Source: Escherichia phage 55
Reading direction: 5' to 3' (one strand)
Sequence record: OQ599310
DNA: 64,000 nucleotides
The number at the start of each line of letters is the position of its first letter. Position 1 is the stretch's first letter. The translations under genes and the position numbers were made by a program. This document shows, piece after piece, positions 12,816 to 56,505 of this stretch. The notes below the pieces were generated by a model. That model worked only from the letters and a program-made list of their open reading frames with translations, had not been told where the DNA came from and searched no databases.

Positions 12816-15800
12816 TTATTCAATCCACTCAAATTTAACAGATTTATTCACAGGGTCTGGAATAATGCGGACATTACCAATCCTTAAGAAATCCCTTATT
12901 GTCAAGTTTCCGATTGTTGCATTATCAGAAGGTAAAGCACCAATATCAGAAGGTTGAGGAGGGTTTCCACCATCAAATACCTGAACAAAACTTGACCAAG
13001 AATTTTTAGTTTTCTGCCATGTACGAGTCCAACGGGTTGTACGTGCTTCCGGTGTCGTTGGATAAGTAATCCAATCTTGGTAAAGAGAATCAAGCGTATT
13101 ACCAAATTGAGTCAAAGTACCAGGAGATTTAACTTCTTCACCACGTTCTAAATATGGAAGCCCAGTCACTTCATTAGTTTTTTCAACCATTTTAAAATAA
13201 CCCGGGAACTGGTTATAAGTGGCTGAATCGTTAATATCGATTGACCAGAATCCTACATTATCAGATGTTGGCGCACGGGTATATAAATCGGATGTTTTAG
13301 TACCCTGAGAACGAATTCTCGAGTTAACAGTCAAACCGCCAGAATTTATAGTAGCACCATTGGCAATGATTAAGCCTTCACCAATTGTAATCTGACCGGA
13401 TTTGTTATTAATTGATAATGGACGTAATCCATTAAATCCACCAGTCTGATCACCAGATGCAGTAAGCATAAAATATGTGCTGCCGCCATCATTGCGAATA
13501 AAGAATCCGTAATCACCACTAATTACTCTGAAAGCATTTGCAGACTTGCTAATGAATTCACCATTGGCTGTAACTGAACGACCAAATGTTGCAACGCCAT
13601 TCGCATTTAACGTGCCTGAAGCGTTAACATTTATTGGCATCACAGTACCATTGATACTAAACGTTATATTCCCAGCTTTATTACGTTGAGAATAAAAGTG
13701 ATTAGATGTTTCATCGCCGACTTCAAATACAGTAGAACGCGTTGTATCTGAACCACCACCAAATTCATTTCCCCAAACTCTGATAGTCATCGTTTGAGCA
13801 GGATTTGTTCCAGTTTGAGGTCCTTTCTCAAAAATCAGACGAGTTGCCGTTCCAGTATTAGAAATAGTTAATGTACTATTTGCCGAAACTGAACCACCAA
13901 ACGTAGCAGTACTAGATGATACAAGAGGGGCACTCAGATTCGTTTGTTGGGTTAAGGTTAGTGAACCATTAACCGTCTGTGCAATGTCCCTACGAATGAA
14001 CTGAGATGAATCTAGACCATCTAATAAATTACTATCTACGGCTTTAGCTTTCAATGGCAAATAGTTAGCAAGTACACGGTTTAATTCATATGGAGATATA
14101 GCATAGCTATTTTTTTCATATGATTCTAAAGGTTGTGTTGAACCAACTGTATCATTACCAACGAATGTAATAGAACCAGATGAAGTTTTAACGAATCCAC
14201 GAATCGCCGTAGTAGCAGCCCATGTTGGTTCAGACTGGACAATCCATTTTAAATTCTTAGGAGATACAGCAGTATTAGCAGAAGTTCCTGTTACAGTTTC
14301 AGCCCGAGTAGCAACCTTAATTACGCCTTCAGACGTTTCAGTGGACTTAGTCCCTAAAAGCTTTTTAGGAGTAATAAGAACATCATCTAAAGTTCCTGCA
14401 TTAGATTCTGCCTGGGTCGCTACGCGAAGCGTACCACGTTGTGTTTCATTTGCTTTAGAAATATCAAGAGTATAATGGTTCCACAAGGTTCCTTCTTCAA
14501 TAAGTCCGGAATCAGAATTAACACTGGTACGGTCAGAAGAATCAAAATGAGTTTTAATTTTCAGTGGAGTTGAGATACGAGTATCGTCAGTTCCAGTATC
14601 AAATTCAACTTGCGTAGCAAGTTCGGCTATGCCGGATAATCCTTCCGTAGCTTTCCTATCATTTAATGTCTTAGGCGTTACTGCACGTGTATAATCAGTC
14701 CCAGCATTAGTTTCTGCTTGCGTAGCAATTTCAATTAAACCAATACGTCCATCAGTAGAAGTTTTCTTATGTAGTGTTTCAGGAGTTACTACAGCGTGAG
14801 AATAACCTGCTTGTGATTGACCAGCAATTACTTCACTATCAACAGCTAAAATTACTGCACCTTGTTGAGCATAAGTTGCTTTATATTGGTCAAGGGCTTT
14901 AGGAGAAATAGTTAACGTGGTTGTGTCTTTATTATAAACATTAGTGCCTGCAGCTCCACGAGTCGCGGCAGGTGTAGCAGAAGTAGTTGATACATATTTA
15001 ACTATACCAGATAGTGTTTCAGAACCCTGACGTGCCTGTAATTTCTTAGGTGTAATAATCGTTGTGTCATCAAGACCAGCATCTGTTTCAACCTGAGTAG
15101 CAATTTCAGCAAGACCGCGACGAGTTTCAGTTGCTGTACGCTCATTTAGTTTTTTAGGCGTAACAATAGTATCATCTACAAATGTTGCTGTGGAATTCTG
15201 GTTAACTTGTGCTGTTGTAGCAATTTTAGCGATACCACGTCGAGCTTCAGTTGCTGTACGATTTGCCAATGTTTCAGGAGTAATAGCCACTTCTTTAGCT
15301 GGAGTATTCTCTAAATCAACATTTGCTTGCGCTTGAGTAGCAAGAGCAATAACACCTAAACGAGCTCGTGTAGCATCAGTTCCAGCATCAACACGTTCTA
15401 CCGTAGGGACATTCTGTTGCACAACCCAATAACGTGTACCAGCAACGGTGTCTTCGATATACGCTAATTCTAATACAGGAACATATGAAGTAGTGCCATT
15501 GAATTCTAGTTCAGTAACAGAGACCCATTGAGCATCAGGTGGATATTCAGAACGTTTAGGGAACTGAAGCAATGCAACAGTGGAAGCAATTGTATCACCT
15601 TCGGCAGCTTTAATTTTTACTGTTTGGCCTTTACGCATGTAGTTCATTGAAATTTTAACAGTGTCACCACTCAAAATTCCGGTAGGCAGCGTAAGATTAA
15701 TAGTTCCGGTTGTAGCGTTATTTGTGCCAAAGATAAGAACTTCTTCATTTGGACGAATATTTGAATCCGCACGGATAATACGAAGACGCGATTTCTGGTC

Positions 15801-16691
15801 GCCTTCCCATATACGCCATAAACTATTTGCAGCATCAAAAACAAAAAACGCGTCAGAGTCATTTCTGCCTTCGGCAATATGAGTCCCGACTTCACCAATA
15901 GACGTTGTATCATCAAATGTTTTAACAATTGTATGATACAGTGGGTTTAATCTATCTAAATCGACTAGGCTGATTATATCACCATTGTTAGCATTACGTG
16001 GAAGTGTAATGTTGATTGGTGCTGCACTAGTAAAACGACGAACGATAAAATCATTTGCTTGTGCTTGATATGGTGTCGCAGGTGTAACAGTGATTGATTC
16101 TTTACCATAATCGGTAATATACATCTGCCACAAACGATTACTAAACACAAACAATAGTTGTGAACGTGGGCGCGTCATTAAAACCGTACGAACTTGTTCA
16201 CCTCTAAAGTTTAAAATACTCTGTACAGACGCGTTAATCTGTACTTTAACTGTCCCGGTTCGTCCACCAATATCAGCCAAAACAACAGTATCACCATCAA
16301 CTGGAGTATTTGGCAATGTAAAAACCATATCATTGCCGGCACCAGTGTTAACCGAAATCGATTCACCTGAAGAAAGTTGACAAGTCCCAGAAGCGACAGT
16401 TATCCATTGTGCATCAGTACGAACTGCACGCCATTGTAAAAGGTTAAATGCCCCGGAAGGAGACACGATATCATTTATTGCTTGATATAAACGGTTGTCA
16501 TAAAGAACAACAAATCCTTTGTTATATCCACGCGTAGAATCATATACTTGAACGGTGTTTTCTTGTACCAGGAAGTCAACGTTTACGCCATCAGTACCTA
16601 CTGTACGGTCGGCTAATGCTACGTTAACAATCTTGTCGCCACCGGCGTCCAGACCGTCTTCGGCTCTGAACTTACGTTTGATGTCGGCCAT
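12816..16691 (-). CDS. 34: gp34 long tail fibre proximal subunit
   Basis: 1291 aa; size and position as T4 gp34 (about 1289 aa). Confidence 0.93.
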   Translation of the reverse strand: MADIKRKFRAEDGLDAGGDKIVNVALADRTVGTDGVNVDFLVQENTVQVYDSTRGYNKGFVVLYDNRLYQAINDIVSPSGAFNLLQWRAVRTDAQWITVASGTCQLSSGESISVNTGAGNDMVFTLPNTPVDGDTVVLADIGGRTGTVKVQINASVQSILNFRGEQVRTVLMTRPRSQLLFVFSNRLWQMYITDYGKESITVTPATPYQAQANDFIVRRFTSAAPINITLPRNANNGDIISLVDLDRLNPLYHTIVKTFDDTTSIGEVGTHIAEGRNDSDAFFVFDAANSLWRIWEGDQKSRLRIIRADSNIRPNEEVLIFGTNNATTGTINLTLPTGILSGDTVKISMNYMRKGQTVKIKAAEGDTIASTVALLQFPKRSEYPPDAQWVSVTELEFNGTTSYVPVLELAYIEDTVAGTRYWVVQQNVPTVERVDAGTDATRARLGVIALATQAQANVDLENTPAKEVAITPETLANRTATEARRGIAKIATTAQVNQNSTATFVDDTIVTPKKLNERTATETRRGLAEIATQVETDAGLDDTTIITPKKLQARQGSETLSGIVKYVSTTSATPAATRGAAGTNVYNKDTTTLTISPKALDQYKATYAQQGAVILAVDSEVIAGQSQAGYSHAVVTPETLHKKTSTDGRIGLIEIATQAETNAGTDYTRAVTPKTLNDRKATEGLSGIAELATQVEFDTGTDDTRISTPLKIKTHFDSSDRTSVNSDSGLIEEGTLWNHYTLDISKANETQRGTLRVATQAESNAGTLDDVLITPKKLLGTKSTETSEGVIKVATRAETVTGTSANTAVSPKNLKWIVQSEPTWAATTAIRGFVKTSSGSITFVGNDTVGSTQPLESYEKNSYAISPYELNRVLANYLPLKAKAVDSNLLDGLDSSQFIRRDIAQTVNGSLTLTQQTNLSAPLVSSSTATFGGSVSANSTLTISNTGTATRLIFEKGPQTGTNPAQTMTIRVWGNEFGGGSDTTRSTVFEVGDETSNHFYSQRNKAGNITFSINGTVMPINVNASGTLNANGVATFGRSVTANGEFISKSANAFRVISGDYGFFIRNDGGSTYFMLTASGDQTGGFNGLRPLSINNKSGQITIGEGLIIANGATINSGGLTVNSRIRSQGTKTSDLYTRAPTSDNVGFWSIDINDSATYNQFPGYFKMVEKTNEVTGLPYLERGEEVKSPGTLTQFGNTLDSLYQDWITYPTTPEARTTRWTRTWQKTKNSWSSFVQVFDGGNPPQPSDIGALPSDNATIGNLTIRDFLRIGNVRIIPDPVNKSVKFEWIE

Positions 16692-16794: not shown

Positions 16795-17712
16795 ATGGAT
16801 TTAGAAATGATGTTGGATGAAGATTACAAAGAAGGTATTGCACTTGCTGACTTTAGTAACATTGCATTGGCAGCCGCATTAAACAACTTTGAAGACGGCG
16901 ATAAAATTACTGTTCCAATGGTTCGACATGTAATCTTGAACTCAATTCGTAAAAACGTAGTGATGTTCCGTAAGCAAGGCTACACAAAATTTGTATTGTG
17001 TATGGATAATGCTACTTCAGGTTATTGGCGTCGTGACTTTGCTTACTATTACAAGAAAAATCGTAAAACCGATCGTGAAGCTTCAAAGTGGGATTGGGAA
17101 GGATATTTTACTGCACTCCATCAAGTTGTTGATGAGATTAAGAAATACATGCCATACGTTGTAATGGATATTGACAAGTATGAAGCGGATGACCATATTG
17201 GTGTATTAACTAAATATTTGTCATTAGCTGGTCATAAGGTATGTATTGTTGCATCAGATGGTGACTTTACACAATTACACAAATATCCTAACGTTAAACA
17301 GTGGTCGCCACCACAGAAAAAATGGGTTAAAATTAAGAACGGTTCTGCTGAAATTGATTGCATGACTAAAATTCTTAAAGGTGACCGTAAGGATGGTGTT
17401 GCATCTGTTCGAGTTCGTGGCGACTTCCGGTTTACCAGAGTTGATGGTGAACGAACTCCAAGCATGAAAACATCAATTATTGAAGCAATTGCTAATGACC
17501 GTTCTCAAGCTGAAGTATTATTAAGTGCAGAAGAATATAAACGGTATCAAGAAAATTTGGTTCTCATTGATTTTGATTATATCCCTGATAATATTGCTTC
17601 AACCATTATAGAGTATTATAACTCATATAAACAACAACCTAAAGGCAAGATTTATTCATACTTTGTAAAATCTGGTCTTTCTAAATTAACAAGTGTAATT
17701 AATGAATTCTGA
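16795..17712 (+). CDS. rnh: RNase H (5'-3' exonuclease)
   Basis: 305 aa; same size and position as T4 RNase H. Confidence 0.9.
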   Translation: MDLEMMLDEDYKEGIALADFSNIALAAALNNFEDGDKITVPMVRHVILNSIRKNVVMFRKQGYTKFVLCMDNATSGYWRRDFAYYYKKNRKTDREASKWDWEGYFTALHQVVDEIKKYMPYVVMDIDKYEADDHIGVLTKYLSLAGHKVCIVASDGDFTQLHKYPNVKQWSPPQKKWVKIKNGSAEIDCMTKILKGDRKDGVASVRVRGDFRFTRVDGERTPSMKTSIIEAIANDRSQAEVLLSAEEYKRYQENLVLIDFDYIPDNIASTIIEYYNSYKQQPKGKIYSYFVKSGLSKLTSVINEF

Positions 17713-17989: not shown

Positions 17990-18305
17990 TATTAAACCGG
18001 TTGATGAGGCCGGTTTATCTGAACAAGAATTAGCAGTAAAACACGATAAAGATGATATCGCTAAATTGCTTGACCGACAAGAAAACGGATTCATTATCGA
18101 ATCCATGGTTGAACAATTTGGTATGTCTTATTTAGAAGCAACAACTGCTTTCTTGGAAGAAAATTCTATTCCAGAAACACAATTTGCTAAATTTATTCCT
18201 ACAGGAATTGTTGAAAAAATTACAAGCGAAGCAATTGACGAAAACATGCTTCGCCCATCAGTTGCTCGTGGTGAAAAAACTAATACGTTAGATTTCTTAT
18301 TATGA
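17967..18305 (+). CDS. 33: gp33 late transcription co-activator
   Basis: 112 aa; size and position as T4 gp33. Confidence 0.88.
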   Translation: MTQFSLSDIKPVDEAGLSEQELAVKHDKDDIAKLLDRQENGFIIESMVEQFGMSYLEATTAFLEENSIPETQFAKFIPTGIVEKITSEAIDENMLRPSVARGEKTNTLDFLL

Positions 18306-18985
18306 AATACGTTGTGTATAAAACTACCAATAAAATAAATGGTAAAATTTATATAGGCGTACACAAAAAACATAAAGAGAAAGATTGGTATATTGGATCA
18401 GGCCGCGCTATATTAGCGGCCAAAGCTAAATATGGACTAAAAAATTTTTATACCGAAATTCTTTATGAATATGATAATGACAAGGACGCCTATAAAAAAG
18501 AAGCAGAATTGGTTAACGAAGATTTTGTTTTGCGAGATGATACTTATAACTTAGTTCCCGGTGGTAAAGGTGGTCCTGGTAAAAAACAAAGTGATGAAGC
18601 TAAAAGGTCTATTTCACTTTCTAAATTAGGTAAACCTAGATCTGAAGAGACTAAGGCTAAAGTATCTAAAACAAGACTAGAAAGAAAAATACCGTCACCT
18701 AATAAGGGTAAGAAACTATCTGAAGCTCACAAATTGGCCTTGAGTAAAGTCCGAAAAGGGCGAAAAACGAATAAGCCGATGCCTGATTCAACCAAAGAAG
18801 CTCTTAGAATAGCAAATTCAAAGCCGCATTCTAAAGAAAGAACTATTAAAAAACAAAAACCTATAATTATTGATGGTATAAAATACGCCTCGTGTAAAGA
18901 AGTTTCAAATGTTTTTAATATTTCTGCGTCTTTAGTTACATATAGACTTAAATCTTCAAAATGGTCCGGATGGAAATATGATTAA
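18302..18985 (+). CDS. GIY-YIG homing endonuclease (Seg/I-TevI-like), free-standing
   Basis: N-terminal GIY..YIG motifs (NGKIYIGVH ... WYIGSG), central Lys/Ser-rich NUMOD-like repeats, C-terminal helix-turn-helix-like segment; ATGA overlap with gene 33 stop and 8-bp overlap with gene 59 start. Confidence 0.85.
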   Translation: MKYVVYKTTNKINGKIYIGVHKKHKEKDWYIGSGRAILAAKAKYGLKNFYTEILYEYDNDKDAYKKEAELVNEDFVLRDDTYNLVPGGKGGPGKKQSDEAKRSISLSKLGKPRSEETKAKVSKTRLERKIPSPNKGKKLSEAHKLALSKVRKGRKTNKPMPDSTKEALRIANSKPHSKERTIKKQKPIIIDGIKYASCKEVSNVFNISASLVTYRLKSSKWSGWKYD

Positions 18986-19631
18986 AATACGCATGCCTCC
19001 TGATGGAGAACGTTATATTAATGGAAAATCGGTATATAAACTATACTTGATGTGCAAAAACCATTTTGGTGGTCGGTATGACGTAATCAAATATAACTGG
19101 TGCATGCGTGTTTCGGATAATGCGTATCAAAAACGCCGAGATAAATATTTCTTTGAGAAACTAGCAGAGAAATATAAGTTAAAGGAACTCACCTTGATAT
19201 TCATCAGTAACTTAGTTGCTAACCAAGATGCATGGATTGGTGAGATATCAGACGCTGATGCATTAGTTTTCTATAGGGAATATATTGGACGTCTCAAACA
19301 AGCCAAGGAGACGTTTGCCGAAGACATACGTAACATCTACTATTTCAGTAAGAAAGTGGAAGTTAGTGCGCTTCAAGAGATATTTGATTATAATAATAAA
19401 GTTCAGTCGAGCTACATATTTAAATTGCTACAAAGCAATATAATTTCATTTGAAACCTTCTTGTTGTTGGATTCATTCTTGAATATTATAGATAAGCATG
19501 ACGAACTTACTGACAATTTAGTCTGGCAAAATTATTCTACCAAATTAAAGGCATATCGAAAAATACTTCAAATCGATGGAAATGCTGCTAAGAAATTGTT
19601 CATAGAAACAATCAAATCATGTAAGTATTAA
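18978..19631 (+). CDS. 59: gp59 helicase loader
   Basis: 217 aa; near-identical to remembered T4 gp59 (DVIKYNWCMRVSD..AYQKRRDKYFF...SNLVANQDAWIG). Confidence 0.93.
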   Translation: MIKIRMPPDGERYINGKSVYKLYLMCKNHFGGRYDVIKYNWCMRVSDNAYQKRRDKYFFEKLAEKYKLKELTLIFISNLVANQDAWIGEISDADALVFYREYIGRLKQAKETFAEDIRNIYYFSKKVEVSALQEIFDYNNKVQSSYIFKLLQSNIISFETFLLLDSFLNIIDKHDELTDNLVWQNYSTKLKAYRKILQIDGNAAKKLFIETIKSCKY

Positions 19632-19747: not shown

Positions 19748-20695
19748 ATGTTTAAACGTAAATCTACTGCTGACCTCGCTGCTCAAATGGCTAAACTGAA
19801 CGGTAACAAAGGTTTCTCTTCAGAAGATAAAGGCGAATGGAAGCTGAAGCTAGATGCATCCGGTAATGGTCAAGCGGTAATTCGTTTCTTGCCAGCAAAA
19901 ACTGATGATGCACTACCATTTGCAATTCTTGTTAACCATGGTTTCAAGAAAAATGGTAAATGGTATATTGAAAATTGCTCTTCTACACATGGTGATTATG
20001 ACTCTTGTCCTGTATGTCAGTACATTATTAAAAATGACCTGTACAATACCAACAAAACTGAATATTCTCAACTGAAACGTAAAACTTCTTATTGGGCTAA
20101 TATTCTGGTTGTTAAAGACCCTCAAGCTCCAGATAATGAAGGTAAAGTATTTAAATATCGTTTCGGTAAAAAGATTTGGGACAAAATCAATGCAATGATT
20201 GCAGTTGATACCGAAATGGGTGAAACTCCAGTTGATGTTACTTGTCCGTTTGAAGGTGCTAACTTCGTTCTGAAAGCTAAGCAGGTTTCTGGTTTTAGCA
20301 ACTATGACGAATCTAAATTCTTGGGTCAATCTGAAATTCCTCGTATTAATGACGAAGCATTCCAGAAAGAACTATATGACCAGATGGTAGACCTTACTAC
20401 TTTGACGGCTAAAGACCAGTTCAAATCCTTTGAAAAATTAAATGAATCTTTCGCTAAGGTTCTTGGTACTGCCGCTCTTGGTGGTGCAGCAGCTGCAGCA
20501 GCTTCTGTTGCAGCAGCTGCAGCAGCTTCTGTTGCAGCTGCTGCAGCTTCTGTTGCAGATAAAGTTGCTTCTGACCTTGACGATTTTGATAAAGACATGG
20601 AAGCCTTTAGTTCTGCAAAAACTGAAGACGACTTCATGAGCTCTACCTCATCTTCTGATGACGGCGACCTCGATGACCTGTTAGCTGGTCTATAA
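19748..20695 (+). CDS. 32: gp32 single-stranded DNA-binding protein
   Basis: 315 aa; near-identical to remembered T4 gp32 with an expanded Ala-rich linker; acidic C-terminus ([12 protein letters not shown]). Confidence 0.95.
20486..20554 (+). repeat. in-frame tandem repeat, about 2.9 copies of a 24-bp unit (GCAGCAGCTGCAGCAGCTTCTGTT) encoding AAAAASVA
   Basis: Copies at 20486-20509, 20510-20533 and a 21-bp third copy 20534-20554, inside gene 32. Confidence 0.85.
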
Positions 20696-50235: not shown

Positions 50236-50247
50236 TATTTATAAATA
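50236..50247. promoter_or_regulatory. overlapping divergent late promoters (TATTTATAAATA) for genes 51 and 26
   Basis: TATAAATA 50240-50247 on plus (gene 26 ATG 50266); reverse complement of 50236-50243 is TATAAATA for gene 51 (start 50218). Confidence 0.6.
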
Positions 50248-50265: not shown

Positions 50266-50892
50266 ATGTACAAATATACGTTTACCGTACGTTTAGGCGA
50301 TAAAGAAGTGAATTGTAGAGCCTTTACTTTAAAAGAATATTTAGGACTCATAGGTGCGCGGGCTACCGGTACTATTGAATCAGCAGTGAACAATATTATC
50401 ACTAATTGCTCTAATGCTAAAAACTTGACTAAACAAGAAGCCGAGTTATTGTTGGTAAATCTGTGGGCACATTCGTTAGGTGAAGTGAATCAAGAACACA
50501 CCTGGAATTGTTCCTGTGGGCATTCATTTCAAGTCTATATGAATTTATTGCACACTCAATTGGATGAACAGGCCGACCCCTGGTATTCGTTTAGTGGTAT
50601 TAAAATTAAGTTCCGACAACCTAAATTATTTGATGATAAAAATATCGCATTAATGATTGCTTCATGTATTGAGGCCGTTTTTGTCAATGGAGAGTCCATC
50701 CCTGTTGAAGATTTAACTGAAGCAGAAATAAACGACCTTTACGGCCTTATAACAGAAGATGACATGATCAATATTAAAAATCTTTTGGTATCGCCGTCAA
50801 TTTATCTGGCAACCCCTATTAAATGTCCCAAATGTGGGGCGTCACACGTTCACACAATACGAGGCCTCAAAGAATTCTTTGAGTTATTATAA
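50266..50892 (+). CDS. 26: gp26 baseplate hub subunit
   Basis: 208 aa as in T4. Confidence 0.85.
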   Translation: MYKYTFTVRLGDKEVNCRAFTLKEYLGLIGARATGTIESAVNNIITNCSNAKNLTKQEAELLLVNLWAHSLGEVNQEHTWNCSCGHSFQVYMNLLHTQLDEQADPWYSFSGIKIKFRQPKLFDDKNIALMIASCIEAVFVNGESIPVEDLTEAEINDLYGLITEDDMINIKNLLVSPSIYLATPIKCPKCGASHVHTIRGLKEFFELL

Positions 50893-51290
50893 TGTCTAAT
50901 ATCAATAAACTTTATTCAGATATCGACCCAGAAATGCGTATGGATTGGAACAAGGACGTTGCTCGTTCTGTAGGACTTCGTTCTATTAAAAATAGTCTTC
51001 TTGGCATAGTGACAACTAGAAAAGGCTCACGCCCCTTCGACCCTGAATTTGGATGCGATTTGGTTGATGAACTTTTCGAGAACATGACACCGCTTACAGC
51101 TGATACGATTGAGCGTAATATCCAGGCAGCCGTCCGTAACTATGAGCCACGCATCGACAAACTTTCTGTAAGTGTAACGCCAGTATATGATGACTATACG
51201 GTTATAGTAGAGATTAGATTTTCGGTCGTAGATAACCCTGATGATATCGAACAAATCAAACTTCAGTTAGCATCAAGCAATAGAGTGTAA
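50892..51290 (+). CDS. 25: gp25 baseplate wedge subunit
   Basis: 132 aa as in T4 gp25. Confidence 0.88.
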   Translation: MSNINKLYSDIDPEMRMDWNKDVARSVGLRSIKNSLLGIVTTRKGSRPFDPEFGCDLVDELFENMTPLTADTIERNIQAAVRNYEPRIDKLSVSVTPVYDDYTVIVEIRFSVVDNPDDIEQIKLQLASSNRV

Positions 51291-51315
51291 TGCTTCAAGG
51301 CAACCTATGTATAAT
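51289..51315 (+). promoter_or_regulatory. MotA-dependent middle promoter upstream of uvsY (MotA box aaTGCTTCA, 12 bp, TATAAT)
   Basis: TGCTTCA 51291-51297; TATAAT 51310-51315. Confidence 0.55.
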
Positions 51316-51370
51316 GGTTTTAGGTCCTTCCGATACAGCCGGGAGATTATTAGTTAAAAGAGAGAATATT

Positions 51371-51784
51371 ATGAAGCTGGAAGATTTACAGGAAGAGTTA
51401 GACGCAGACTTAGCTATTGATACGACAAAGTTGCAATATGAGACGGCGAATAATGTTAAGTTATACAGCAAATGGCTACGTAAGCACTCATTTATTCGTA
51501 AAGAAATGTTGCGTATAGAGACTCAGAAGAAAACTGCTCTAAAAGCAAGATTAGACTACTACTCGGGACGAGGTGATGGTGATGAATTCAGTATGGACCG
51601 ATACGAAAAATCTGAAATGAAAACTGTCCTGGCCGCAGATAAAGATGTGCTTAAAATAGAGACTACTTTACAATACTGGGGAATTTTACTTGAGTTCTGT
51701 AGTGGTGCACTTGATGCAGTTAAGTCTCGTAGTTTTGCACTTAAACATATCCAGGATATGCGAGAATTTGAAGCGGGGCAATAA
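51371..51784 (+). CDS. uvsY: UvsY recombination mediator
   Basis: Start moved to internal ATG 51371, giving 137 aa, the length of T4 UvsY. Confidence 0.85.
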   Translation: MKLEDLQEELDADLAIDTTKLQYETANNVKLYSKWLRKHSFIRKEMLRIETQKKTALKARLDYYSGRGDGDEFSMDRYEKSEMKTVLAADKDVLKIETTLQYWGILLEFCSGALDAVKSRSFALKHIQDMREFEAGQ

Positions 51785-52008
51785 TGCGTTATTCAATTGA
51801 AGATGCCTTTAATAATGATGAAGAATTTGAAACTGAAATTAAATTCTTAATGGAAAAGTATCGTCTACGACGTCAGGATATTCGTATTCTGGCCGACCAT
51901 CCTTGTGGCGAAGACGTCCTTTATATTAAAGGGAAGTTTGCTGGGTACATCGACGAGTATTTTTATACAAAAGATATGGGTATCGATATGTGCATGCGAA
52001 TGGTATAA
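51784..52008 (+). CDS. hypothetical protein (74 aa), uvsY.-1-position
   Basis: ORF track; start overlaps the uvsY stop. Confidence 0.45.
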   Translation: MRYSIEDAFNNDEEFETEIKFLMEKYRLRRQDIRILADHPCGEDVLYIKGKFAGYIDEYFYTKDMGIDMCMRMV

Positions 52009-52040
52009 ATAGATATGTAATTTCAACTTAGGAGGCAATC

Positions 52041-52208
52041 ATGTCAGATAAGATTTGTGTTGTCTGTAAAACTCCAATCGATTCTGCATTGGTTGTTGAA
52101 ACAGACAAAGGTCCAGCACATCCTGGTCCTTGTTATAATTATGTCCAACAATTGCCGGTTTCAGAAAGTTCAGAAGAGCAATTGAACGAAACCCAACTTT
52201 TACTATAG
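52041..52208 (+). CDS. small Cys-containing protein (55 aa), uvsY.-2-position
   Basis: Not in ORF track; strong SD ggaggcaatcATG; CVVC motif. Confidence 0.4.
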   Translation: MSDKICVVCKTPIDSALVVETDKGPAHPGPCYNYVQQLPVSESSEEQLNETQLLL

Positions 52209-52235
52209 TGTTACCTTTTTTTGCCTATGGTTTTT

Positions 52236-52257
52236 GGCCCTTCCAAAAGGTCGGGCC
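52236..52257. terminator. hairpin GGCCC...GGGCC flanked by T-runs, between convergent genes
   Basis: Stem 52236-52240/52253-52257 with flanking TTTTT and TTTTTT. Confidence 0.55.
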
Positions 52258-52265
52258 TTTTTTAA

Positions 52266-52499
52266 TTAGAAGTCTTCTTCCTCATCCTCATCATCGTCGC
52301 CTTCAAGTTCGGCACGCTTACCTGCTAAGGCATCCCTGACAGAAATATCGTCTGTATCTTTTAATTCCGTTTCTTTTATACGTTTCTTATAATAAGCTTC
52401 CAATTCTTCAAGCCCTTCTAAGGTATGACAACTAGCAATTTTACCCATGAATTCGTCAATAGATGCTTCGTATAAAAATTGTTTAAATTCAAGTACCAT
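52266..52499 (-). CDS. uvsW.1: UvsW.1 (separate small acidic protein)
   Basis: 77 aa ORF directly downstream of uvsW; acidic C-terminus. Confidence 0.75.
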   Translation of the reverse strand: MVLEFKQFLYEASIDEFMGKIASCHTLEGLEELEAYYKKRIKETELKDTDDISVRDALAGKRAELEGDDDEDEEEDF

Positions 52500-52510
52500 T
52501 TTTATCTCCT

Positions 52511-52526
52511 AAGGGCCGAAGCCCTT
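52511..52526 (-). promoter_or_regulatory. hairpin AAGGGC-cgaa-GCCCTT at the uvsW/uvsW.1 junction
   Basis: Perfect stem overlapping the uvsW stop; precedes the uvsW.1 SD. Confidence 0.4.
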
Positions 52527-54039
52527 ATAAATTAATTGTTTTCATTACATAGTTAAATTTCTCATCAGCGTAACGTTGGATACGATCAATACCGTGTTTT
52601 AACAAGTAATTAAGATGAGTATACTTCTTTTTAGTATTTAATGATTTAGGTTTTACACCTGCGTCATCGATGAGATCCCAAACTGTAGCAACAGCTTTAG
52701 AACCATGCTTACGAAGCACACGACCTACTGTTTGAAGTACGATAATTTTTGATTTAACACCATGGGCAAAAATAACATGATGAAGATTCTTGACTGAAAT
52801 ACCAGTAGAGAATACTCCATATGATGCGACAATAATAATGCCTTTACCATTTTCTGCCATGACTTTAAGCGCGTTACGTGTTTCAGTATCAACTTCACCT
52901 GATACGTAATAAACTTTTTCGTATCCAAGCTCTTTAATAGCTTCAAATATTTCTTTACCGTGTGTAACGTGTTTAAACATTACAAAGGCGTTCTCGTCTT
53001 TCTTGGCCAATTTGACTGAAAGTTGGGCAATCCACTTTGTACGTCGTTTTAGTCCGGTAATAATTTTAACTTCTTCTTGGTATGTTTTACCTTTTAATTT
53101 AGTGGCGAATTCGTCCGGATAACGAAGGAAAATACTATTAATCTTAAGCTCAGTTACCTGTCCGTCTTCCATTAATTTAGACGTGCTAACAGGACGGAAG
53201 ATTTCGCCGAACATACCTACGTACTGCATTACATTGGCTTTTCCGTCTCTTAATGAGCCGGATAAACCGAATTTAAACATACAATTATTTAATCCTGAGA
53301 TGATTGAAGAAATACTTTTGCCTGTTGCTAAGTGGCATTCATCGTTCATCATCATACCGAACTGAGAGAACCATTCTTTAGGCTGCTTAACTACCGTTTG
53401 CCATGTGCCAACAATAATTGGAGCGTCGTTTTTAGATTTGTCCGCTTTATCGGCACCACCGCCAATTTTCTTAATCATCGAATGACTAAACAAGCGATAA
53501 TCAACAAAATCATTAGCCATCTGGGTTGTCAATGCTGTTGTAGGGACGATAATGAGAATTTTACCTTCATAGTTCTCTAGATAATATCGAGCTAAAAGTG
53601 CTTGGATTAGTGATTTACCTGCTGATGTCGGAAGGTTTAAAATTCGACGACGATTAACTAGTCCTTCATATACTGCATCTTTTTGATACCAATGTGGTTC
53701 GATTTTGGTGTTGCCCGAATAAATTTCTTGTTTAGAAAGCCATGCGTCAAAATCTTCCCTAGTAAGGTCTTCAGTCTCAAAGATTTTAGGGTCAATCCAT
53801 ACAGAATAACTCATATTGTTACAGAACTTTTTTATTTGTCCTACAAGTCCATATGGTAACAAACGATTGTAATCTAAAAGTCGAATTCTACCATCCCATT
53901 GCCCATAGCGATATTTTGGGTTAAATTTATACCCGTCAGCTTCAAAGCTAAAAAAGTCACGAAGTTCGTAAAACGTACTTTCGTCGCATTCAATGCGAAC
54001 GTGACTAAAATCATAAAAATGTACTTTAATGTCAGTCAT
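52525..54039 (-). CDS. uvsW: UvsW DNA/RNA helicase (SF2)
   Basis: 504 aa; Walker A (PTSAGKS) and DExH-like (MNDECH) motifs. Confidence 0.92.
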   Translation of the reverse strand: MTDIKVHFYDFSHVRIECDESTFYELRDFFSFEADGYKFNPKYRYGQWDGRIRLLDYNRLLPYGLVGQIKKFCNNMSYSVWIDPKIFETEDLTREDFDAWLSKQEIYSGNTKIEPHWYQKDAVYEGLVNRRRILNLPTSAGKSLIQALLARYYLENYEGKILIIVPTTALTTQMANDFVDYRLFSHSMIKKIGGGADKADKSKNDAPIIVGTWQTVVKQPKEWFSQFGMMMNDECHLATGKSISSIISGLNNCMFKFGLSGSLRDGKANVMQYVGMFGEIFRPVSTSKLMEDGQVTELKINSIFLRYPDEFATKLKGKTYQEEVKIITGLKRRTKWIAQLSVKLAKKDENAFVMFKHVTHGKEIFEAIKELGYEKVYYVSGEVDTETRNALKVMAENGKGIIIVASYGVFSTGISVKNLHHVIFAHGVKSKIIVLQTVGRVLRKHGSKAVATVWDLIDDAGVKPKSLNTKKKYTHLNYLLKHGIDRIQRYADEKFNYVMKTINL

Positions 54040-54068: not shown

Positions 54069-54076
54069 TATTTATA
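54069..54076 (-). promoter_or_regulatory. late promoter TATAAATA for uvsW
   Basis: Reverse complement of tatttata 54069-54076. Confidence 0.45.
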
Positions 54077-56441: not shown

Positions 56442-56468
56442 ATGCTTTACAATTTTTGATGGTATAAT
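56442..56468 (+). promoter_or_regulatory. MotA-box middle promoter upstream of rnlB (aTGCTTTA, 13 bp, TATAAT)
   Basis: TGCTTTA 56443-56449; TATAAT 56463-56468. Confidence 0.5.
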
Positions 56469-56505
56469 GAATCTAGGTTCTATCCATTCAAATTAAACAT
56501 CTGGT

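Follow-up and report, generated by a model that had tools for sequence, protein, structure and literature searches.

A middle promoter at the gp25/uvsY junction of a Mosigvirus phage is the positional counterpart of the T4 oriF promoter and marks a possible replication origin, by homology

The window analysed here is a whole stretch of 64,000 nucleotides from Escherichia phage 55 (record OQ599310), a Mosigvirus, i.e. an RB69-like T-even phage. Positions 50892-52300, which contain the uvsY locus, are 98-99% identical to many Mosigvirus genomes (LNA2, HX01, SHSML-52-1), with T4 being more distant. The plus strand of the window corresponds to the minus strand of T4, and the order of the genes around uvsY is alike in both. 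The locus comprises the following features, with the basis of each assignment in parentheses:

50892-51290, plus strand: gene 25, encoding the baseplate wedge protein gp25 (list of open reading frames; Pfam GPW_gp25, E = 4.8e-19; T4 synteny)
51288-51290, plus strand: TAA stop codon of gp25
51288-51297, plus strand: MotA box TAATGCTTCA (sequence; consensus (a/t)(a/t)(a/t)TGCTTtA, PMC2988021)
51298-51309, plus strand: 12-bp spacer AGGCAACCTATG between the MotA box and the -10 element
51310-51315, plus strand: sigma-70 -10 element TATAAT (sequence)
51322, plus strand: predicted transcription start, an A, the 7th base past the -10 element (alignment to the T4 PuvsY start at 115371)
51327-51345, plus strand: GC-rich leader hairpin CTTCCG-ATACAGC-CGGGAG, followed by ATTATTAGTT (fold and terminator-like scan; Mosigvirus)
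51346-51375, plus strand: A/T-rich patch of 30 bp, the only candidate unwinding element (nearest-neighbour stability, 0.4th percentile of 30-bp windows)
51371-51784, plus strand: uvsY, 137 aa, first in the transcript (Pfam UvsY, E = 1.1e-48; start codon aligns with that of T4)
51784-52008, plus strand: uvsY.-1, downstream and co-transcribed (T4 synteny; no Pfam match)
52004-52011, plus strand: late promoter TATAAATA ahead of uvsY.-2, inside the end of uvsY.-1 (motif)
52041-52208, plus strand: uvsY.-2 (DUF2685), downstream and co-transcribed (list of open reading frames; Pfam)
52266-52499, minus strand: UvsW.1 (Pfam)
52525-54039, minus strand: uvsW helicase (Pfam UvsW_N, E = 6.5e-45)
54069-54076, minus strand: late promoter TATAAATA upstream of uvsW (motif)

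The window holds 15 late-promoter motifs versus 7.2 expected; an overlapping divergent pair lies between genes 51 and 26 (50236-50243, minus strand; 50240-50247, plus strand). Between the convergent uvsY.-2 and uvsW.1 genes, a GC-rich hairpin, GGCCCTTCC-AAAA-GGTCGGGCC, is followed by TTTTTT (52237-52265) and probably ends transcription of the uvsY operon; the simple terminator scan did not flag it, probably on account of an internal mismatch that makes the stem imperfect. An Rfam scan of positions 50800-52600 at E <= 1 gave zero matches. GC/AT skew between 40 and 64 kb was considered as an origin signal and rejected, as it merely tracks gene orientation.

The start of uvsY is given differently in related records. 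RB69 NP_861890 lists a protein of 164 aa that starts at the gp25 stop (ATG 51290 of the window), and the SHSML-52-1 record lists one of 156 aa that starts at the ATG inside TATAATGG (ATG 51314 of the window). Both of these starts lie upstream of the predicted start site of the middle promoter. As the T4-homologous uvsY start with a Shine-Dalgarno sequence is the ATG at 51371, both annotations are probably over-extended, and for annotators the value of the present analysis lies in a true uvsY start at 51371 and a middle-promoter start near 51322.

A sequence-only reading of the window had described a MotA box 12 bp upstream of TATAAT just before uvsY. Indeed, TGCTTCA (51291-51297), a 12-bp spacer and TATAAT (51310-51315) precede the uvsY ATG at 51371. 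The nonamer AATGCTTCA occupies 51289-51297, with TGCTTCA as its core. The same reading had placed the box within the last codons of gene 25, which is not the case: TGCTTCA begins directly after the TAA stop, and it is this stop codon that provides the three A/T positions with which the MotA-box consensus begins. Middle promoters carry the consensus (a/t)(a/t)(a/t)TGCTTtA at 12 +/- 1 bp from the -10 element, centred near -30 (PMC2988021). The uvsY site combines a MotA box that fits this consensus exactly with an excellent -10 element at a permitted spacing, and both MotA and AsiA are encoded. A loose pattern (TGCTTNA-N11-13-TANNNT) matched 13 times in the window versus 4.2 expected, and a strict one (TGCTTYA-N11-13-TATAAT) matched three times versus 0.11 expected, with 0/100 shuffles reaching at least three. 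The three strict-pattern sites are the homologues of the known T4 middle promoters P34i, PuvsY and PrnlB.

The same element is found at the same gp25/uvsY junction in T4 and in every genus of the Tevenvirinae that was aligned. Its GCTT core and TATAATG are invariant across 18 aligned loci from six genera (Mosigvirus, Tequatrovirus, Karamvirus, Winklervirus, Gaprivervirus and the genus of Citrobacter phage CF1), and the -10 element is alignable in Jiaodavirus, Dhakavirus and RB43, too. The first ~20 transcribed bases are better kept across genera than the remainder of the uvsY leader. RB69 does not differ from the window anywhere between the gp25 stop and the uvsY ATG, and a middle promoter, Pm:117605, was already predicted there, scored low at 8.1 and with no claim of an origin (Nolan et al. 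2006, PMC1524935, Additional file 4). Pm:117605 covers 117565-117605 on the minus strand and spans the gp25/uvsY junction at 117598. Another listed element, Pm:112073, was considered as the uvsY promoter and rejected, as it is the rnlB promoter. The promoter is thus already catalogued in this genus, and the uvsY site is the expected orthologue of a textbook element.

T4 is the only phage in which the MotA/AsiA-dependent start of uvsY has been mapped; it lies at 115371, seven bases past the -10 element (PMC2988021, Table 1). The T4 record places the rep_origin oriF at 115321, 50 nt downstream of the PuvsY start. Judged by position and sequence, the 51291-51315 site and the oriF promoter of T4, PuvsY, are positional orthologues. 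The earlier claim of a T4-equivalent middle promoter at uvsY is therefore borne out, given the same gp25/uvsY junction and a TGCTTCA and TATAATG identical to those of T4, and we consider it very probable that the site is a real MotA-dependent middle promoter of uvsY.

The sequence-only reading had also assumed that the A/T-rich unwinding region downstream of the T4 promoter is conserved, and this part is not borne out in the form given. The leader (51316-51370, 55 bp) has a GC content of 38.2%, compared to a window mean of 37.9%, and the 50-bp T4 leader has 30%. When 30-bp windows are ordered by duplex stability (nearest-neighbour calculation), the first 30 bp past the -10 element (51316-51345) come out at the 94th percentile, and identity to T4 amounts to 58% in 51316-51341 and 48% in 51342-51370, with indels. 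The easily melted patch at 51346-51375 covers the Shine-Dalgarno sequence GAGAG (51360-51364) and the uvsY start codon. On a larger scale, 50-bp and 100-bp windows beginning at 51316 lie at the 44th-54th stability percentile, and 100-bp windows range over the 15th-44th percentile here versus the 6th-17th at T4 oriF. GGAG in the 3' arm of the leader hairpin (51342-51345), not at the Shine-Dalgarno sequence, matches what we take to be the recognition motif of RegB.

We also modelled supercoil-driven opening, using a simplified Benham-type model. In the native 5-kb context, the opening probability was ~1e-3 at the uvsY site and at T4 oriF alike, because more A/T-rich neighbours win, so that the positive control failed. 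Placed in a neutral background of 52% GC, the uvsY and T4 oriF inserts opened at the same superhelical density in the model, with maximum opening probabilities at sigma -0.0525 of 0.41 here and 0.24 for T4 oriF and with modelled opening peaks at TSS+36 and TSS+43, respectively. However, 36% of random 160-bp fragments of this genome unwound in the model as easily as the uvsY site and 45% as easily as T4 oriF. Given the failed native-context control and these fractions, we rejected the model as a discriminating test; it suggests that the uvsY site and T4 oriF unwind about equally readily, a property that does not discriminate. The energy of the RNA-DNA hybrid minus that of the duplex over the first 50 nt was +1.9 (83rd percentile) here and +1.1 (75th percentile) in T4, rough values that would be unremarkable for both phages.

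In T4, oriF and oriG each need ~100 bp, with the middle-mode promoter forming the upstream half of the minimal origin (Kreuzer and Brister review, PMC3016281). The second half of oriF, downstream, is an A+T-rich unwinding element of ~50 bp; it is not sequence-specific, and heterologous unwinding elements can replace it (PMC3016281). RNase H, gp59 and gp32 process and use the R-loop primers, and UvsW unwinds the origin R-loops late in infection (PMC3016281). All trans-acting factors of this T4 R-loop pathway, namely RNase H, gp59, gp32 and UvsW with its late promoter, are encoded in the window, together with the two regulators of middle transcription:

3734-4366, plus strand: motA, the activator reading the MotA box (Pfam MotA_activ, E = 1e-39; MotCF, E = 5e-9)
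6228-6500, plus strand: asiA, the co-activator of middle transcription (Pfam AsiA, E = 2.4e-32)
16795-17712, plus strand: rnh, RNase H (Pfam)
18978-19631, plus strand: gene 59, helicase loader (Pfam)
19748-20695, plus strand: gene 32 (Pfam)

Between genes 33 and 59, the window has an open reading frame of 227 aa for a GIY-YIG / I-TevI-like homing endonuclease (18302-18985, plus strand), whereas the two genes abut directly in T4, with no reading frame between them.

The other two strict-pattern promoters bear on the question of how widely R-loop origins may be used in this lineage and of how distinctive the uvsY site is:

14451-14476, plus strand: homologue of P34i (the oriG promoter), TGCTTTA-13 bp-TATAAT, antisense inside gene 34 (12816-16691, minus strand) and at the homologous position
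56443-56468, plus strand: PrnlB, a perfect middle promoter, TGCTTTA-13-TATAAT, upstream of rnlB and equivalent to RB69 Pm:112073 and T4 PrnlB

T4 P34i, which starts at 153011 (T4 rep_origin oriG, 152947), is the promoter of oriG and is read antisense to gene 34 (PMC3016281, PMC2988021). The promoter is conserved in 11/13 gp34 loci. Among 11 gp34 loci from several genera, 4/5 of the third-codon positions that fall within the P34i MotA box and -10 element show no variation, versus 25/130 (19%) elsewhere (binomial P ~0.006, for sequences that are not independent). We know of no role for the antisense P34i beyond origin priming. Maintenance of a promoter whose only known role is priming suggests that R-loop origins are maintained and in use in this lineage. 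The 160 bp downstream of PrnlB are in the model the most easily unwound of all candidates, within the top 0.4% of random fragments, and the DNA downstream of another middle-promoter site, at 17595, ranks at the 1.4th percentile, much more easily unwound than that of uvsY. By architecture alone, as modelled, PrnlB at 56443 would be a better origin candidate than the uvsY site.

A short pyrimidine-rich motif at the start of the transcript is common to both T4 origin promoters and their homologues here. It reads TA(A/G)GTCC(A/T)TCC in uvsY leaders and GTTCCT in P34i, and can be written for both origin-type promoters as TATAATG R W T Y Y ... G T Y C C W T. We located it in the window at 51322-51341, 14483-14505 and 56475-56495, and in T4 after PuvsY, P34i and P42; in the non-coding uvsY leader it is kept in 6/8 genera. 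The motif is not exclusive to origins, as a similar one follows T4 P42 and PrnlB of this phage; the PrnlB transcript begins with GAATCTAGGTTCTATCCATTCAA, which is similar to GAATCTAAGTCCATCCAATAAC of the T4 PuvsY leader. Moreover, its enrichment is marginal, with 3 observed versus ~0.8 expected among 33 T4 middle promoters (taken from the first 50 kb of the genome and from the regions around uvsY and gene 34), and it was noticed post hoc. That it represents a genuine feature of T4-type origin promoters is, in our view, very unlikely.

Taking T4 as a guide, we infer the start site, the MotA dependence and every replication step at uvsY as follows. A MotA/AsiA-dependent middle promoter would start a transcript at ~51322 and drive uvsY, uvsY.-1 and uvsY.-2, which need a pre-replicative promoter of their own because they lie behind the late genes 26 and 25. 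Over the A/T-rich stretch from ~+25 to +55 (51346-51375), the transcript would stay paired with its template. RNase H would trim the annealed uvsY-leader RNA, gp43 would extend it rightward as the leading strand, and gp59 would load gp41 onto the displaced strand. UvsW, expressed late, would eventually remove the R-loop at uvsY.

The main alternative is that the element serves as a MotA-dependent promoter of the uvsY operon without origin activity, replication starting instead from elsewhere, for instance the P34i/oriG homologue or oriE/oriA-type sites, and by recombination; we give this reading somewhat less than an even chance. It would fully explain the conservation of the promoter, which is expected with or without an origin because uvsY follows late genes. 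Furthermore, the part of the leader that corresponds to the unwinding element shares only 48-58% identity with T4, is of genome-average GC content and opens with a stable, GC-rich hairpin region, and the DNA downstream of PrnlB and of the 17595 site unwinds far more easily, so that architecture alone does not single out the uvsY site. Most T4 middle promoters are not origins: plasmid origins were recovered for only two of nearly 60 (PMC3016281, PMC2988021), and architecture alone is therefore no predictor of an origin. Against a role as promoter only stand the positional orthology to a proven T4 origin, the tolerance of the T4 unwinding element for heterologous replacements (PMC3016281), modelled unwinding equal to that of T4 oriF, the better conservation of the first ~20 transcribed bases across genera compared to the rest of the leader, and the retention of the oriG promoter in this lineage.

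Two further explanations question the promoter or its leader. A fortuitous combination of MotA box and -10 element, with uvsY expressed by read-through or from another promoter, is hardly credible to us: about four chance occurrences of the loose pattern are expected in 64 kb, and some of its 13 matches do lie inside genes with no downstream reading frame, but the strict pattern is expected only 0.11 times, the position and sequence are kept across six genera in a non-coding gap, the site is homologous to an experimentally mapped T4 promoter, and the genes upstream are late genes with late promoters. It is also highly improbable that the Mosigvirus hairpin and the U-rich tract behind it (51327-51354) act, unlike in T4, as a pause site or attenuator that limits uvsY or defines a short primer RNA. 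The hairpin is present in the minimum-free-energy fold, was flagged by the terminator-like scan (a 6-bp stem with 4 GC pairs, then ATTATTAGTT) and is identical in RB69 and in a metagenomic relative. However, the whole leader RNA folds no better than shuffled sequences (z = +0.89; 164/200 shuffles fold as well), 1.6 such sites are expected by chance in the 1.8-kb stretch scanned, the U-tract is poor, and conservation of the hairpin does not extend beyond the genus, T4 having none.

A literature search for origin mapping in RB69 or other Mosigvirus phages found only a guess from GC skew for phiC120. By analogy with T4, we see an even chance that the 51.3-kb site is both the uvsY promoter and an active R-loop origin, the counterpart of T4 oriF. 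The sequence-only reading had called it a likely origin. Positional orthology to T4 oriF and the set of trans-acting factors speak for that view, the unwinding half gives it no clear support, and as the conservation can be explained by the promoter alone and only two of the nearly 60 T4 middle promoters yielded plasmid origins, we weaken "likely" to "possible origin, by homology". Should the site prove to be an active origin, the design of T4 oriF would reach beyond Tequatrovirus and would tolerate a near-complete rewrite of its unwinding element, including a GC-rich hairpin, which would help to narrow what an R-loop origin requires. In practical terms, the site offers a candidate origin in phages of the RB69 type, which find use in therapy and in polymerase research.

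Among known systems, the uvsY site is closest to T4 oriF/ori(uvsY). The two share the position at the junction of the gp25 stop and uvsY, the TGCTTCA heptamer preceded by the TAA stop (TAATGCTTCA in both), TATAATG and the predicted start base, as well as the downstream uvsY, uvsY.-1 and uvsY.-2, the convergent uvsW and the set of trans-acting factors. They differ in the spacer, which is 12 bp here and 13 bp in T4 with a different sequence, and in the leader after the -10 element, which is 55 nt here and 50 nt in T4, only about half identical, with a GC content of 38% versus 30%. The GC-rich hairpin at +6 to +24 is found here and not in T4, whereas a 10-bp tandem duplication in T4 (CCAATAACAA x2) is absent here. 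This duplication in the oriF unwinding element is also absent from five other Tequatrovirus loci, so that even phages closely related to T4 differ in how long the element is. Origin activity is proven in T4, whereas the site described here is a candidate by homology. With T4 oriG/ori(34), the uvsY site has in common the two-part design of a MotA-dependent promoter and a downstream unwinding region; oriG lies antisense inside the late gene 34, while the uvsY site also has an obvious role in gene expression. ColE1 RNA II and E. coli oriK differ in lacking MotA/AsiA activation and any sequence homology, and ColE1 in addition relies on a specific RNA II fold, a G-rich/C-rich hybrid and host Pol I. 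The likeness to these systems lies in a template-hybridised transcript that is cut by RNase H activity into a leading-strand primer (PMC3016281).
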